Assembly: GCF_003334355.1 (NCBI RefSeq)
Contig: NZ_QOWP01000003.1
Reading direction: 5' to 3' (one strand)
Length of the DNA stretch: 64,000 nucleotides
Origin: Escherichia coli
Lineage (GTDB): Bacteria; Pseudomonadota; Gammaproteobacteria; Enterobacterales; Enterobacteriaceae
Shown: positions 5,234 through 48,096 of the stretch, in pieces
Numbering within the stretch: the first letter of the stretch is position 1
How the letters are laid out: each line of letters starts with the position of its first letter
Program-made: the position numbers and the translations under genes
Notes under the pieces: model-generated
What the model saw: only the letters and a program-made list of their open reading frames with translations
What the model was told of the DNA's origin: nothing
Database searches by the model: none

Positions 5234-7212
<1,979 letters not shown>

Positions 7213-7214
<2 letters not shown>

Positions 7215-8352
7215 GTCAGAGCCCCTCGATCTCAATCAGTTAGCGCAAAAAATTAAACAGTGGGGGCTGGAACTGGGCTTTCAGCAGGTAGGTATTACCG
7301 ATACCGATCTCAGCGAGTCCGAGCCCAAACTGCAAGCATGGCTGGACAAACAATACCACGGCGAAATGGACTGGATGGCACGTCACGGTATGCTGCGCGC
7401 TCGCCCTCATGAGTTATTGCCCGGTACGCTGCGCGTGATCAGCGTGCGGATGAATTACCTTCCTGCTAACGCCGCATTTGCCAGCACGCTGAAAAACCCC
7501 AAACTCGGCTATGTTAGCCGTTATGCGCTGGGCCGTGACTATCACAAACTTCTGCGCAACCGACTCAAAAAGCTGGGCGAGATGATTCAGCAACATTGTG
7601 TTTCGCTGAATTTTAGACCGTTTGTCGATTCTGCGCCTATTCTCGAGCGCCCGTTAGCTGAAAAAGCTGGGCTCGGCTGGACAGGTAAGCACTCACTTAT
7701 CCTCAATCGCGAGGCCGGTTCGTTCTTCTTTTTAGGCGAATTGCTGGTCGATATTCCGCTGCCCGTGGATCAACCAGTCGAGGAAGGATGCGGCAAATGC
7801 GTGGCCTGTATGACGATTTGCCCGACCGGTGCCATCGTCGAGCCATATACCGTCGATGCTCGCCGCTGTATCTCTTATCTCACCATCGAACTTGAAGGGG
7901 CGATCCCGGAAGAGTTGCGACCGTTAATGGGAAACCGTATTTACGGTTGCGATGACTGCCAGCTTATCTGCCCGTGGAATCGCTATTCACAACTCACCAC
8001 AGAAGAGGATTTCAGCCCGCGTAAGCCGCTACACGCACCGGAACTCATTGAGTTATTCGCCTGGAGCGAAGAGAAGTTTTTAAAAGTCACGGAAGGATCG
8101 GCGATTCGTCGTATTGGTCACCTGCGTTGGCTGCGTAATATCGCCGTAGCATTAGGCAATGCCCCTTGGGATGAAACGATTTTGACAGCGCTGGAAAGTC
8201 GTAAAGGTGAGCACCCACTTCTCGATGAGCACATAGCGTGGGCGATTGCGCAGCAAATAGAGAGACGAAATGCGTGCATAGTCGAAGTGCAATTGCCGAA
8301 AAAACAGCGTCTGGTTCGGGTGATTGAAAAAGGGTTACCGCGTGACGCCTGA
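7213..8352 (+). CDS. queG: Epoxyqueuosine reductase QueG (YjeS), 379 aa
   Basis: ORF track 7105-8352 contains MSEPLDLNQLAQKIKQWGLELGFQQ from codon 37; start set to that ATG (7213); 4Fe-4S cysteine motifs CGKCVACMTICP present. Confidence 0.9.
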
Positions 8353-14900: not shown

Positions 14901-15243
14901 GATACCGGCCCCTGCCGATGCCAATAGCGAAGAAGTGACGGAAATCCTGCTCACCGCAGCGCGTCGCTGCTCGCTGGTGATCGACAACCCGGCACCGGAA
15001 GTCTTCCTGGTGGATCTGCAACAGGGGATTCAGATTTTCGAGCTGCGTATTTACGCCGCTGAGATGGGTCACCGTATGCCGCTACGCCATGAGATCCACC
15101 AGCTGATTCTGGCTGGCTTCCATGCCCACGGTATCGATATGCCATTCCCGCCCTTCCAGATGCGTCTGGAAAGCCTCAACGGTAAACAAACGGGGAGAAC
15201 GCTGACGTCTGCGGGCAAAGGTCGTCAGGCGGGAAGTTTGTAA
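11920..15243 (+). CDS. mscM: Miniconductance mechanosensitive channel MscM (YjeP), GTG start
   Basis: ORF track 1107 aa; signal peptide, long Gln/Leu-rich periplasmic coiled-coil, C-terminal MscS-type channel domain. Confidence 0.92.
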   Translation: MRLIITFLMAWCLSWGAYAATAPDSKQITQELEQAKAAKPAQPEVVEALQSALNALEERKGSLERIKQYQQVIDNYPKLSATLRAQLNNMRDEPRSVSPGMSTDALNQEILQVSSQLLDKSRQAQQEQERAREIADSLNQLPQQQTDARRQLNEIERRLGTLTGNTPLNQAQNFALQSDSARLKALVDELELAQLSANNRQELARLRSELAEKESQQLDAYLQALRNQLNSQRQLEAERALESTELLAENSADLPKDIVAQFKINRELSAALNQQAQRMDLVASQQRQAASQTLQVRQALNTLREQSQWLGSSNLLGEALRAQVARLPEMPKPQQLDTEMAQLRVQRLRYEDLLNKQPLLRQIHQADGQPLTAEQNRILEAQLRTQRELLNSLLQGGDTLLLELTKLKVSNGQLEDALKEVNEATHRYLFWTSDVRPMTIAWPLEIAQDLRRLISLDTFSQLGKASVMMLTSKETILPLFGALILVGCSIYSRRYFTRFLERSAAKVGKVTQDHFWLTLRTLFWSILVASPLPVLWMTLGYGLREAWPYPLAVAIGDGVTATVPLLWVVMICATFARPNGLFIAHFGWPRERVSRGMRYYLMSIGLIVPLIMALMMFDNLDDREFSGSLGRLCFILICGALAVVTLSLKKAGIPLYLNKEGSGDNITNHMLWNMMIGAPLVAILASAVGYLATAQALLARLETSVAIWFLLLVVYHVIRRWMLIQRRRLAFDRAKHRRAEMLAQRARGEEEAHHHSSPEGAIEVDESEVDLDAISAQSLRLVRSILMLIALLSVIVLWSEIHSAFGFLENISLWDVTSTVQGVESLEPITLGAVLIAILVFIITTQLVRNLPALLELAILQHLDLTPGTGYAITTITKYLLMLIGGLVGFSMIGIEWSKLQWLVAALGVGLGFGLQEIFANFISGLIILFEKPIRIGDTVTIRDLTGSVTKINTRATTISDWDRKEIIVPNKAFITEQFINWSLSDSVTRVVLTIPAPADANSEEVTEILLTAARRCSLVIDNPAPEVFLVDLQQGIQIFELRIYAAEMGHRMPLRHEIHQLILAGFHAHGIDMPFPPFQMRLESLNGKQTGRTLTSAGKGRQAGSL

Positions 15244-15244
15244 G

Positions 15245-15279
15245 TTTGTGTGCCGGATGAACCAATCCGGCTCACAAAC
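15245..15279. terminator. Long hairpin (15-bp stem, one mismatch) between convergent mscM and yjeO; likely bidirectional terminator
   Basis: GTTTGTGTGCCGGAT...ATCCGGCTCACAAAC inverted repeat seen directly; overlaps yjeO stop codon. Confidence 0.5.
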
Positions 15280-21923: not shown

Positions 21924-23479
<1,556 letters not shown>

Positions 23480-23567
23480 AATTTCATCGGGTCCGAATTT
23501 TCGGACCTTTTCTGCGCTTTTCCTTGCTGTCATCTACACTTAGAAAAAAACCAGTAAGGAAACATTT

Positions 23568-24101
23568 ATGCGCCTGCTCCCTCTCGTTGCCGCAGCGACA
23601 GCTGCATTTCTGGTCGTTGCCTGCAGTTCTCCTACGCCGCCGCGTGGCGTGACAGTAGTGAATAATTTCGACGCTAAACGCTATCTCGGTACCTGGTATG
23701 AGATTGCCCGTTTTGATCACCGTTTTGAACGTGGACTGGAAAAAGTCACCGCAACATACAGTCTGCGTGATGACGGCGGCCTGAATGTCATCAATAAAGG
23801 CTATAACCCTGACAGAGAAATGTGGCAGCAGAGTGAAGGGAAAGCGTACTTTACCGGCGCACCAACACGCGCTGCGCTGAAAGTGTCATTCTTTGGTCCT
23901 TTCTATGGCGGTTATAACGTCATTGCACTTGATCGGGAATACCGCCATGCGCTGGTTTGCGGCCCGGACCGCGACTACCTGTGGATACTCTCCCGCACGC
24001 CAACCATTTCTGACGAAGTGAAACAGGAGATGCTGGCAGTCGCGACCCGGGAAGGGTTTGATGTCAGTAAGTTTATTTGGGTACAGCAGCCCGGTAGTTA
24101 G
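23568..24101 (+). CDS. blc: Outer-membrane lipocalin Blc
   Basis: ORF track 177 aa [21 protein letters not shown] (lipoprotein signal) ...[10 protein letters not shown] lipocalin motif. Confidence 0.93.
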
Positions 24102-24415
24102 TGAGTGCTGAGTTTCAGACCAATAATCCCCAATACGATTAACGCCAGACTCGCCAGGCGCATCGGGTTAGCGGACTCACCGAGCAGTACAATGCCGGTG
24201 ATAGCCGCGCCGACTGCGCCAATACCCGTCCACACGGCATAAGCCGTCCCTACTGGTAACGATTTCATCGCCCAGGCAAGTAGCGCCATACTGACAATCA
24301 TCGCCGTCACGGTAATAACACTCGGCGTCAAACGACTAAAGCCGTGGGTATATTTCAGGCCAACGGCCCATACCACTTCCAGCAGACCAGCAATAACTAA
24401 GATAATCCAGGACAT
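24098..24415 (-). CDS. gdx: SMR-family guanidinium exporter Gdx (SugE), 105 aa
   Basis: ORF track 24098-24565 trimmed to [26 protein letters not shown]; four-TM SMR protein. Confidence 0.93.
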
Positions 24416-24431
24416 ATCAGGCTCCGGAGAA

Positions 24432-24479
24432 TTGGGGCCGTCCCCGGTGAAAAGACGCGTTTGCAGGTCGTCCTGCAAA
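24432..24479 (-). ncRNA. Guanidine-II riboswitch (mini-ykkC) in the gdx/sugE leader
   Basis: Minus-strand transcript has two GC-rich hairpins with ACGR tetraloops: UUUGCAGG-ACGA-CCUGCAAA (24460-24479) and GGGG-ACGG-CCCC (24434-24445), the second immediately upstream of the GGAG Shine-Dalgarno. Confidence 0.7.
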
Positions 24480-24596
24480 GCTGATGGTTGAACGGATATT
24501 TTGCCAGGTGGCAGGGGAATTTCAACTATTACCTTAGTGACTATCGCAGAAAAAACAAACGGCACGACACAGCTGTCGTACCGTTATTGCTTATTG

Positions 24597-30883: not shown

Positions 30884-32140
30884 ATGAGTGGACTCAAACA
30901 AGAACTGGGGCTGGCCCAGGGCATTGGCCTGCTATCGACGTCATTATTAGGCACTGGCGTGTTTGCCGTTCCTGCGTTAGCTGCGCTGGTAGCGGGCAAT
31001 AACAGCCTGTGGGCGTGGCCCGTTTTGATTATCTTAGTGTTCCCGATTGCGATTGTGTTTGCGATTCTGGGTCGCCACTATCCCAGCGCAGGCGGCGTCG
31101 CGCACTTCGTCGGTATGGCGTTTGGTTCGCGGCTTGAGCGAGTCACCGGCTGGCTGTTTTTATCGGTCATTCCCGTGGGTTTGCCTGCCGCACTACAAAT
31201 TGCCGCCGGGTTCGGCCAGGCGATGTTTGGCTGGCATAGCTGGCAACTGTTGTTGGCAGAACTCGGTACGCTGGCGCTGGTGTGGTATATCGGTACTCGC
31301 GGTGCCAGTTCCAGTGCTAATCTACAAACCGTTATTGCCGGACTTATCGTCGCGCTGATTGTCGCTATCTGGTGGGCGGGCGATATCAAACCTGCGAATA
31401 TCCCCTTTCCGGCACCTGGTAATATCGAACTTACCGGGTTATTTGCTGCGTTATCAGTGATGTTCTGGTGTTTTGTCGGTCTGGAGGCATTTGCCCATCT
31501 CGCCTCGGAATTTAAAAATCCAGAGCGTGATTTTCCTCGTGCTTTGATGATTGGTCTGCTGCTGGCAGGATTAGTCTACTGGGGCTGTACGGTAGTCGTC
31601 TTACACTTCGACGCCTATGGTGAAAAAATGGCGGCGGCAGCATCGCTTCCAAAAATTGTAGTGCAGTTGTTCGGTGTAGGAGCGTTATGGATTGCCTGCG
31701 TGATTGGCTATCTGGCCTGCTTTGCCAGTCTCAACATTTATATACAGAGCTTCGCCCGCTTGGTCTGGTCGCAGGCGCAACATAATCCTGACCACTACCT
31801 GGCACGCCTCTCTTCTCGCCATATCCCGAATAATGCCCTCAATGCGGTGCTCGGCTGCTGTGTGGTGAGCACTTTGGTGATTCATGCTTTAGAGATCAAT
31901 CTGGACGCTCTTATTATTTATGCCAATGGCATCTTTATTATGATTTATCTGTTATGCATGCTGGCAGGCTGTAAATTATTGCAAGGACGTTATCGACTAC
32001 TGGCGGTGGTTGGCGGGCTGTTATGCGTTCTGTTACTGGCAATGGTCGGCTGGAAAAGTCTCTATGCGCTGATCATGCTGGCGGGGTTATGGCTGTTGCT
32101 GCCAAAACGAAAAACGCCGGAAAATGGCATAACCACATAA
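30884..32140 (+). CDS. yjeH: APC-family amino-acid exporter YjeH, 418 aa
   Basis: ORF track 30824-32140 trimmed to MSGLKQELGLAQGIGLLSTSLLGTGVF; 12-TM permease. Confidence 0.9.
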   Translation: MSGLKQELGLAQGIGLLSTSLLGTGVFAVPALAALVAGNNSLWAWPVLIILVFPIAIVFAILGRHYPSAGGVAHFVGMAFGSRLERVTGWLFLSVIPVGLPAALQIAAGFGQAMFGWHSWQLLLAELGTLALVWYIGTRGASSSANLQTVIAGLIVALIVAIWWAGDIKPANIPFPAPGNIELTGLFAALSVMFWCFVGLEAFAHLASEFKNPERDFPRALMIGLLLAGLVYWGCTVVVLHFDAYGEKMAAAASLPKIVVQLFGVGALWIACVIGYLACFASLNIYIQSFARLVWSQAQHNPDHYLARLSSRHIPNNALNAVLGCCVVSTLVIHALEINLDALIIYANGIFIMIYLLCMLAGCKLLQGRYRLLAVVGGLLCVLLLAMVGWKSLYALIMLAGLWLLLPKRKTPENGITT

Positions 32141-32155
32141 TCCGGCGTTTCGACA

Positions 32156-38786: not shown

Positions 38787-39361
38787 TCAGGACGCCACGA
38801 TTTAAGCGTTCTGCCTCCAAATCAATTCTACCGAACTCAACCAGATTCTCCCCACATCACCAGCAATTTGCGGGCATATCCCAATTCGGGAAAATTTGTT
38901 CCTGAGCTATAGCACTAACTGACGTGAAATGTCGTGCGGCCCCGTGATGCTGTTGAACGTCAAATGACGTCATCAGGAGCGTAACGCATCCATAAAGCAC
39001 AACACCGGTCTGAACGGCGACTGATGAGATTTTCTGAATGAGAACAAAGAGAAATGTATCAGTTCGCTTGCTCATGCAAAGACTAACAATCCATTAAAAT
39101 AGTAAGTGCTCCGGACAATTTTCCATGGATTATTTTCTGAACATTTTTCTTTGGCAAAGATGATGAATTTTGATGGTAAGGAATATTACTTCTGGTTCTC
39201 AGTAAAATCCTTTCGTAATACTATGTAATCAAGAAGTTTATGGCTGGTAAAAATAACGTCTTGCATTCACCAATAATATGTAAATAAACCCATCTATAGA
39301 TGGTAAAAATAGGTTGTGGCAATTATCATTGCATCATTCCCTTTTCGAATGAGTTTCTATT

Positions 39362-46342: not shown

Positions 46343-46578
46343 CTGTCGTAAAAACAATTGGTTATGAATAAATTAACTTTCAGTTTATAACACTAACAAA
46401 TCGAGATTAATAAGTCATTTAAACCATTTTGATGGTTATTTATTAGTGATATCAACTTGAGGTAAGCGTTAGTTTCGATAAGATAAACTGAGTTACTAAT
46501 AGTCGAGGCAGATAATACAGTGTACCGATCTGTCTCTTTATCTACGCTAAATTGAAAGCTGGATTTAGAGGAACCAAA

Positions 46579-48096
46579 ATGTCTGAACAAGAAACACGGG
46601 GAGCCAATGAGGCTATTGATTTTAACGATGAACTGAGAAATCGCCGCGAAAAACTGGCGGCACTACGTCAGCAAGGTGTGGCGTTTCCCAATGATTTTCG
46701 CCGCGACCATACCTCTGACCAGTTGCACGAAGAGTTTGATGCGAAGGATAACCAGGAACTGGAATCCTTAAACATTGAAGTCTCGGTTGCTGGCCGAATG
46801 ATGACCCGTCGTATCATGGGGAAAGCCTCCTTTGTAACGTTGCAGGATGTCGGTGGCCGTATTCAACTGTACGTTGCAAGAGATAGCCTGCCAGAAGGTG
46901 TTTATAACGATCAGTTTAAAAAATGGGATCTGGGTGACATTATCGGTGCCCGCGGTACGCTGTTTAAGACGCAAACGGGTGAGCTTTCCATTCACTGTAC
47001 TGAGTTGCGCCTGCTGACAAAAGCACTACGTCCTTTACCAGATAAATTCCATGGTCTGCAGGATCAGGAAGTCCGTTATCGTCAACGTTATCTGGACCTC
47101 ATCGCTAACGATAAATCCCGTCAAACGTTTGTTGTCCGTTCAAAAATTCTGGCCGCTATCCGTCAGTTCATGGTCGCGCGCGGCTTTATGGAAGTAGAAA
47201 CCCCGATGATGCAGGTAATTCCAGGTGGGGCATCTGCTCGCCCATTTATTACCCATCATAATGCTCTGGATTTAGATATGTATCTGCGTATCGCGCCGGA
47301 GCTGTATCTGAAACGTCTGGTTGTAGGCGGTTTTGAACGGGTATTCGAAATCAACCGTAACTTCCGTAATGAAGGTATTTCTGTTCGCCATAATCCTGAG
47401 TTCACAATGATGGAACTCTACATGGCGTATGCGGATTACCACGATTTGATTGAACTGACAGAGTCACTGTTCCGCACCCTGGCACAAGAGGTTCTGGGTA
47501 CCACTAAAGTCACTTATGGCGAGCATGTGTTTGATTTCGGCAAACCGTTTGAAAAACTCACCATGCGCGAAGCAATCAAAAAATATCGTCCAGAAACCGA
47601 TATGGCCGACCTGGATAATTTTGATGCTGCTAAAGCATTAGCTGAATCTATCGGAATTACGGTAGAGAAAAGCTGGGGGCTGGGACGTATTGTCACGGAG
47701 ATCTTTGATGAAGTGGCAGAAGCACATCTGATTCAGCCAACCTTTATTACGGAATATCCGGCAGAAGTGTCCCCGCTGGCGCGCCGTAATGATGTTAACC
47801 CGGAAATCACCGACCGTTTTGAATTCTTCATCGGTGGTCGTGAAATCGGTAATGGTTTTAGCGAATTAAACGACGCAGAAGATCAGGCTGAACGTTTCCA
47901 GGAACAGGTTAACGCTAAAGCTGCAGGTGACGACGAAGCCATGTTCTATGACGAAGATTACGTGACTGCGCTGGAATATGGTCTGCCGCCAACCGCTGGT
48001 CTGGGTATTGGCATCGACCGAATGATTATGCTGTTTACAAACAGTCATACTATTCGTGACGTTATTCTCTTCCCGGCGATGCGCCCACAGAAATAA
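46579..48096 (+). CDS. lysU: Lysine--tRNA ligase, inducible form LysU, 505 aa
   Basis: ORF track 46552-48096 trimmed to [33 protein letters not shown]; assigned lysU rather than lysS by genomic context next to cadA/dtpC. Confidence 0.93.

Follow-up and report, generated by a model that had tools for sequence, protein, structure and literature searches.

The genes blc and gdx (sugE) of Escherichia coli converge until their stop codons interlock, and the locus raises the question of whether so tight a junction ties the expression of the two genes together or is simply the way in which two neighbouring reading frames end. A sequence-only reading of the 64,000-nucleotide stretch of E. coli DNA considered here (the window) had held that the two transcripts must overlap at their 3′ ends, and that transcriptional interference could couple the genes. 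The local order on the E. coli chromosome is frdABCD, ampC and blc, with gdx (sugE), ecnB, ecnA and efp on the opposite strand. The features that define the junction are as follows.

23568-24101, plus strand: blc, encoding the 177-residue outer-membrane lipocalin lipoprotein Blc (open reading frame list, NF007786, RefSeq)
24098-24415, minus strand: gdx (sugE), encoding a 105-residue guanidinium exporter of the SMR family (NF008512, RefSeq)
24098-24101, both strands: TTAG, the 4-nt overlap of the blc and gdx reading frames (read from the sequence)

The junction and its two genes

At its 3′ end blc reads ...CAG CAG CCC GGT AGT TAG, the TAG at 24099-24101 closing 177 codons and being followed directly on its 3′ side by a back-up TGA. 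The gdx tail reads ...AGC ACT CAC (S-T-H) and then TAA, which is the complement of 24098-24100 (TTA). The bases common to the two stop codons are 24099-24100, and the reading frames share 24098-24101. Direct reading thus bears out two earlier statements, namely that the blc TAG and the gdx TAA have two nucleotides in common and that there is zero intergenic space between the genes, the frames overlapping by TTAG.

Blc scores 346 bits against NCBIfam profile NF007786 (cut-off 267) over residues 1-175, and Gdx scores 193.5 bits against NF008512 (cut-off 126), where residues 1-104 of 105 cover profile positions 1-104 of 104. Both proteins align with their family profiles to within a residue or two of their ends, and judged on their sequences both reading frames are genuine genes. 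The true start of gdx is the ATG at 24415; the mechanical list of open reading frames gives a 155-residue product from GTG 24565, which is an artefact because the profile aligns with its residues 51-154.

RefSeq (PGAP) annotates an identical 4-nt blc-gdx overlap in a strain of 100% identity, in K-12 MG1655 and on a CMY-2 plasmid. In MG1655 gdx occupies 4376875-4377192 and blc 4377189-4377722, a window position being 4401290 minus the MG1655 coordinate. A stretch of approximately 1.1 kb around the junction is 100% identical to E. coli strain 720632, and the window coordinates coincide with the annotation of that strain. Were one of the two stops an artefact of annotation and not a real gene end, the overlap would not be true. 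We reject this explanation, which is barely credible: nothing speaks in its favour, the sole artefact being the GTG 24565 extension at the other end of gdx, whereas the curated profiles align right to the last residues of both proteins and both stops hold their position in 41 of 45 loci. Neither frame has an alternative in-frame end, and blc has its back-up TGA.

The four-nucleotide overlap and its conservation

Enumeration reveals that convergent reading frames cannot overlap by 1, 2, 3 or 5 nt, and that an overlap of 4 nt, the shortest possible, can only take the form TTAA, CTAA, TTAG or CTAG (YTAR). Given a gene whose end reads TTA or CTA on the opposite strand, an incoming frame that is to stop there needs the right register (1 in 3) and a purine as the next base (approximately 1 in 2). 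Converging frames lock easily into YTAR because TTA or CTA already holds the TA of the next-base stop, and the arrangement persists because only transitions at the two outer bases keep both stops. Lillo and Krakauer (2007; PMC2174442) named the same four tetramers and found 4 bp to be the modal overlap; they counted 58 convergent overlaps in E. coli, 1218 of 1890 convergent overlaps measured at least 5 nt, and such convergent genes have to carry any terminator within the partner gene. The blc and gdx genes lie on opposite strands with facing 3′ ends, both ends being conserved, and they share with this class an allowed tetramer (TTAG), the modal length and termination inside the partner. There is no difference in kind, apart from the pair being unusually well kept (39 of 43 species loci) and also plasmid-borne with blaCMY-2. 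The overlap is therefore the commonest and shortest kind of tail-to-tail overlap and not more than chance would give. It is also already known, since it is annotated in RefSeq and included in a published catalogue (ExcludonFinder).

The window holds seven convergent pairs, with spacings of -18, +28, -4, +202, +15, +123 and +138 nt. Among them, queG and the convergent 17-codon frame yjeV overlap by 18 nt (8224-8241), mscM and yjeO are separated by a 28-nt spacer (15243-15272), and yjeH and fxsA, which are also an ExcludonFinder excludon, by one of 15 nt (32131-32147). The latter two spacers are too small for a normal bidirectional terminator. Close packing is seen in other orientations as well: tsaE and nnr, on the same strand, overlap by 29 nt (5556-5584), and the start regions of the divergent genes nnr and queG overlap by 2 nt (7102-7103).

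The blc-gdx locus belongs to the core of E. coli, being found in 5425 of 5426 complete genomes. Eighty blc loci were taken, one genome per species, and 43 of these also had a convergent gdx; BLAST supplied two more loci. The 4-nt overlap is kept in 39 of the 43 species loci, and in 41 of 45 when the two BLAST loci are counted. The tetramer in these 41 is TTAA in 20, TTAG in 17, CTAA in two and CTAG in two; only its outer bases vary, through transitions that preserve both stops. The loci span Escherichia, Citrobacter, Enterobacter, Klebsiella, Raoultella, Kosakonia, Cedecea, Buttiauxella, Leclercia, Pluralibacter, Pseudescherichia, Pseudocitrobacter and Superficieibacter, and the Citrobacter-derived blaCMY-2-blc-sugE plasmid unit has the same annotated overlap. 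Among the blc loci, one genome per species, gdx was not found next to blc outside the Enterobacterales.

Four lineages depart from the pattern. The genes abut (0 nt) in a Raoultella MAG, overlap by 7 nt in Serratia grimesii and are separated by a 75-nt spacer in S. microhaemolytica. In Salmonella enterica subsp. arizonae a 16-nt spacer lies between the blc and gdx stops, approximately 20 nt having been inserted (L013:3032-3053); this spacer is a natural “uncoupled” variant and a possible comparison for expression work. Since four lineages have lost it, the overlap geometry is dispensable. The tetramer pattern is that expected from purifying selection on two stops together with a low indel rate, and by itself it is no sign of selection for the overlap. 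The last two to four residues of Blc vary freely (PGS, PGA, PH, KG and others), with length differing by one codon, and the tetramer end persists. That the overlap is kept despite this free variation of the Blc tail could mean that the geometry itself, rather than inertia, is under selection.

Transcript ends on the two strands

With no DNA between them, neither blc nor gdx has a terminator of its own. On neither strand did the terminator scan detect an intrinsic terminator at the junction or close to it, and from 24102, the first base past the blc stop, to 24800 the plus strand has none. Inside the partner genes its sole match, which we do not accept as a terminator, was a weak minus-strand site of 5 bp (23767-23750), approximately 330 nt past the gdx stop. 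Nor does the junction carry the G+C-rich hairpin, with an A-run on one side and a T-run on the other, that characterizes an intrinsic bidirectional terminator.

In many genera the junction is a near-palindrome, such as CAGCCCCA-TTAA-TGGGTGCTG, whose loop holds the stops and whose folding energy is -11 to -13 kcal/mol. Both proteins end with His-stop in Enterobacter, Kosakonia, Leclercia and others, and there the palindrome is near-perfect, CAGCCCCA TTAA TGGGYGCTG (palindromic loci L014-L041, e.g. L027:3012-3047 and L036:3012-3047). The palindrome is not family-wide: E. coli and Citrobacter, in which blc is one codon longer, have a decayed form of it, and the remnant in E. coli is a hairpin with a 5-bp outer stem and a 17-nt loop (-7 kcal/mol). 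RNAalifold gave no consensus for a conserved junction structure on either strand. An 8-bp junction hairpin was considered as a conserved bidirectional terminator and rejected: its positions are 73% paired, yet 112 of 500 column shuffles match this figure and a single pair covaries. Collision-driven bidirectional terminators between convergent E. coli genes (Ju et al. 2019; Wang et al., bioRxiv 10.1101/2022.10.23.513370) resemble the present locus in two ways: the convergent pair is without intrinsic terminators of the classical kind, and there is a stem-loop close to where the genes meet. Those terminators, however, are found in intergenic DNA and produce uniform Rho-independent 3′ ends, whereas blc and gdx have no intergenic DNA, their junction hairpin is not conserved and the gdx strand is Rho-sensitive.

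The RNA that each gene would add beyond its stop has the following composition.

24007-24097, minus strand: gdx read-through, antisense to blc, with C 33-36%, G 15-18% and C/G 2.0-2.2; candidate Rho loading region
24102-24440, plus strand: untranslated extension of blc, antisense to gdx, with C/G 1.04-1.9; candidate Rho loading region

On both sides the RNA past the stop has the composition associated with Rho termination, that is, a C-rich and G-poor stretch of at least approximately 80 untranslated nucleotides. In the blc extension C/G exceeds 1.1 in all but one 78-nt window over approximately 340 nt, and no terminator consisting of a hairpin plus T-run was found between 24102 and 24440, where the RNA folds without a U-tract. 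Farther along, at 24558-24585 on the minus strand, lies the ecnB terminator, a 12-bp hairpin followed by TGTTTTTTCT, for which the published 3′ end (4376736) corresponds to window position 24554. Read on the plus strand this hairpin contains an A·C mismatch and its T-run is poor; blc read-through that had passed all of gdx and the riboswitch might meet a leaky stop here.

The leader of gdx bears on how much RNA reaches the junction from that side.

24433-24479, minus strand: guanidine-II riboswitch (mini-ykkC) in the gdx leader (Rfam RF01068, 49.3 bits against a gathering score of 32, E 5.9e-08)
24498-24525, minus strand: promoter-like gdx site, TTGAAA and CAAAAT separated by 16 nt, with an upstream TG (consensus scan)
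24414 (MG1655 4376876), minus strand: published dominant 3′ end of gdx in LB, Rho score 3.7 (PMC7815308)

The riboswitch consists of two hairpins with the loops ACGA and ACGG directly upstream of gdx, and the position of the promoter-like site agrees with the published transcription start approximately 76 nt upstream of 24414 (about 24490; PMC7815308). In the data of Adams et al. (2021; PMC7815308) the dominant 3′ end in LB is at the start codon, 76 nt from the transcription start and approximately 316 nt before the overlap. They also placed a Rho termination region inside the gdx frame, centred at 4377088 (window position about 24202; score 8.4, p = 4e-73), which is of low resolution because it was measured over 800-nt windows. 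In the same work bicyclomycin (BCM) raised the ratio of downstream to upstream reads on the gdx strand 8.4-fold, the downstream window taking in antisense blc. A fusion of the sugE 5′UTR and ORF to lacZ was more than twofold higher in rhoR66S, where longer transcripts, probably full-length gdx mRNA, were enriched.

Leaning on these results, we conclude that the guanidine-II riboswitch controls the translation of gdx and thereby decides if Rho stops the transcript ahead of the overlap. As gdx RNA is terminated prematurely by Rho when the ligand is lacking, most gdx transcripts stop short of the overlap unless guanidine is present, and this early termination means that Rho limits transcription into antisense blc. 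The gene, the element and the exposure of untranslated RNA to Rho are those of Adams et al. (2021); their account covers the 5′ end of gdx, and the consequence for the 3′ overlap with blc is not discussed there. For blc itself the tables of that paper give no 3′ end (no row naming blc and no minus-strand sugE row), and the supplements of Yan et al. (2018) give none either. PMC7815308 records no blc read-through, the sugE rows (a single Rho-region row and the 3′-end rows displayed) all being on the gdx strand.

The earlier claim that the 3′ ends must overlap consequently stands in part. It holds for any mRNA that carries its own stop, by simple logic and in keeping with the lack of a junction terminator and the ExcludonFinder listing, and the conclusion that full-length blc and gdx transcripts overlap is sound. 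As a general rule it has to be qualified, since in LB the majority of gdx transcripts do not extend as far as the overlap (PMC7815308).

One further structure lies in the overlap zone.

23963-24051, minus strand: stem-loop of approximately 89 nt with a 17-bp closing helix, inside blc and probably on the gdx-sense strand (folds, pair counts in 38 species, synonymous-codon null)

Its closing helix pairs 24051-24035 with 23979-23963, and the structure spans nucleotides 47-135 beyond the gdx stop. As minus-strand RNA it has a folding energy of -45.2 kcal/mol (z -4.06), with comparable values in Enterobacter (-45.6, z -3.3) and Kosakonia (-48, z -3.9). In each of the four species examined the fold is weaker on the blc-sense strand than on the gdx-sense strand. 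Over 38 related species the 33 pairs of the stem-loop are 74.9% paired, against 40-47% for slid partners, a comparison that is biased because the stem-loop was found post hoc from this sequence; 11 of the 33 pairs show changes on both sides. The 17-bp helix retains a mean of 13.7 of its 17 pairs, where 10.2 are expected from synonymous-codon shuffles, and in the window all 17 are formed, a number reached by none of 20,000 synonymous shuffles. A 13-bp core is 90% paired as gdx-sense RNA and 74% as blc-sense RNA.

Possible coupling of blc and gdx

The explanation that we favour, and hold to be probable, is that blc and gdx form an ordinary, ancestral and minimal tail-to-tail overlap without a dedicated signal of its own. 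Each transcript would run into the coding sequence of its partner as untranslated antisense RNA, and this read-through would most likely be ended by Rho, with 3′ trimming afterwards; on the blc side the action of Rho is suggested by composition. The amount of overlap would be set upstream. For gdx the guanidine-II riboswitch would decide, in that without ligand there would be no translation, an early Rho stop and little RNA at the overlap; for blc the amount would depend on RpoS-dependent transcription in stationary phase. The expression of blc is indeed reduced in an rpoS mutant and induced on entry into stationary phase (PMC4512719, citing Bishop et al. 1995). Mutual damping, whether by polymerase collision or by an RNA duplex, would then be a conditional by-product, to be expected only with both genes strongly on, and any coupling would probably be weak. 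Because uninduced gdx transcripts are ended early by Rho and blc is expressed in stationary phase, we treat coupling as conditional and as a hypothesis.

The idea of coupling through transcriptional interference is plausible and is not new, being the published excludon idea. In the ExcludonFinder catalogue of Sanmartin et al. (NAR 2025; PMC12288877) gdx-blc is one of 165 convergent excludons listed for E. coli MG1655, a listing which denotes that at least 50% of RNA-seq samples showed the overlap. In their procedure a coding sequence is extended up to the point where coverage drops under half of the mean for that gene, and since the blc and gdx coding sequences already overlap, the call is nearly automatic for this pair, which was not individually validated there. 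Four other pairs of the window are listed as well, including queG-nnr and yjeV-queG, and from these two the “non-contiguous operon” yjeV-queG-nnr is built. With the convergent excludons of the Sesto and Lasa concept (PMC12288877), blc-gdx shares neighbouring convergent genes and, by its own place in the catalogue, probably overlapping 3′ transcript ends. The defining outcome of excludons is mutually exclusive expression by way of interference or RNase III, which for this pair is a hypothesis. Here gdx and blc overlap even in their coding sequences.

Expression data from strain ZX-1 bear on the same point. This strain carries a 20-bp deletion in hairpin P2 of the riboswitch and expresses gdx constitutively (Kojima and Ito 2025; PMC13064478). 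In strand-specific RNA-seq (n = 1 per condition) gdx rises from 468 to 26029 counts (log2 +6.08, approximately 56-fold) and blc falls from 1180 to 263 (log2 -1.89, approximately fourfold less; n = 1). Other RpoS genes fall as well, namely dps (-2.09), otsA (-1.73), katE (-1.35) and osmY (-1.10), and the neighbouring gene ecnB changes by -0.47 (PMC13064478). In ZX-1 with 700 mM CsCl katE (+4.59), otsA (+3.51), ecnB (+2.49) and dps (+2.26) increase 5- to 24-fold, and blc is not among the top 1205 ranked rows of this response (PMC13064478). The fall in blc is compatible with damping by gdx read-through, in an experiment without replicates in which strain background, plasmid background and a shift of the RpoS regulon are all confounding factors. 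As proof of interference we reject this transcriptome, given that n = 1 and that blc falls no further than other RpoS genes.

A rival explanation is a functional convergent excludon, in which guanidine-induced gdx transcription running into blc lowers Blc through head-on collision and cleavage of the RNA duplex by RNase III, RpoS-driven blc RNA that is antisense to the whole of gdx damps the exporter, and the overlap is kept in order to guarantee this cross-talk. We consider it improbable. No terminator insulates blc from gdx, and the geometry is kept in 39 of 43 species, yet four lineages do without the overlap. To our knowledge the lipocalin and the guanidinium exporter have no functional link, which also counts against such an arrangement. 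The place of the pair among the 165 convergent excludons of E. coli favours it (PMC12288877), but that call, as noted, is nearly automatic for overlapping coding sequences and was not individually validated. The 8.4-fold rise of the gdx-strand ratio with bicyclomycin likewise agrees with transcription into blc, the ratio being measured over 800-nt windows with its best position inside gdx. Both promoters, however, are weak or conditional, the 3′-end read count of gdx being 1663 against 75293 for frdD. In ZX-1 the opposite changes of gdx (+6.08) and blc (-1.89), with blc outside the top 1205 CsCl responders while RpoS genes rise, are what an excludon would predict, but the comparison has n = 1 and spans different plasmid backgrounds, and RpoS genes in general drop in that strain to a degree that matches blc.

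The stem-loop supplies a different argument. Conserved just past the gdx stop, it is a hint of a selected RNA element in the overlap zone and so speaks against a purely passive reading. Such an element would be the place where Rho-terminated gdx transcripts are trimmed and stabilised, or a pause hairpin that positions head-on polymerase collisions. Fold stability, pairing over 38 species, the excess over the synonymous null and the gdx-sense bias all argue for it. Trimming of 3′ ends reportedly halts at a stable stem-loop. That Rho-terminated 3′ ends are trimmed back by 3′-to-5′ exonucleases (PMC7815308, citing Dar and Sorek 2018) and that a stem-loop is required to position collisions (bioRxiv 10.1101/2022.10.23.513370) are further points in its favour. 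Against these, the structure was found post hoc in this very sequence, and both of its arms encode conserved Blc motifs (GPDRDYL and LAxATRE/Q). Pairing on the plus strand is also above its own null (11.8 versus 8.0-9.2), and a cause in the blc mRNA or at the DNA level is possible. The long helix is missing from the MFE fold of Klebsiella spallanzanii, nothing in Rfam matches the stem-loop, and the tables of PMC7815308 have no 3′ end there, though gdx was uninduced in those conditions. The stem-loop could, on the strength of these predicted folds, be a 3′-end-stabilising or pause structure for gdx mRNA; as an explanation of the locus a selected RNA element is unlikely, if somewhat less so than the excludon. 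A combination of the two, in which the fixed 4-nt overlap and the stem-loop make up a selected, coding-embedded module for termination and 3′-end formation, with guanidine-induced gdx damping Blc and the reverse across the Enterobacteriaceae and the CMY-2 plasmids, is a long shot.

If the ordinary overlap that we prefer is taken as it stands, it matters little, being a textbook case of the minimal convergent kind. It does have practical consequences, in that deleting or tagging the 3′ end of either blc or gdx alters the stop codon of the other gene, and with blc deleted the gdx mRNA would also lose any 3′ extension that it has. The blaCMY-2-blc-sugE unit brings the same junction onto resistance plasmids. 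Should the coupling be true, the locus would offer a clean, inducible natural test case for interference of the excludon type, because guanidine and the riboswitch (gdx) and RpoS (blc) can be titrated independently.

Some other features of the window may be recorded here. Rfam matched Trp_leader at 22240-22329 on the plus strand with 21.7 bits against 41, and we reject this match; what is present is only the hairpin GGCCCGCCTATGGCGGGCC and a T-run after frdD. This hairpin is the frd terminator, described in earlier work as the attenuator of ampC, and the 3′ end published for frdD in MG1655 (4378962) corresponds to window position 22328. Just past the ampC stop and upstream of the blc promoter region, at 23490-23513 on the plus strand, the hairpin GGTCCGAATTTTCGGACC is followed by TTTTCT; it is absent from the output of the consensus scan and looks like the ampC terminator. 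An integrase fragment adjoins tRNA-Phe (38934-39093), and a frameshifted transposase of the IS3 family lies between dtpC and ghoT (46382-47872); by their annotation both are strain-specific remnants of mobile elements.
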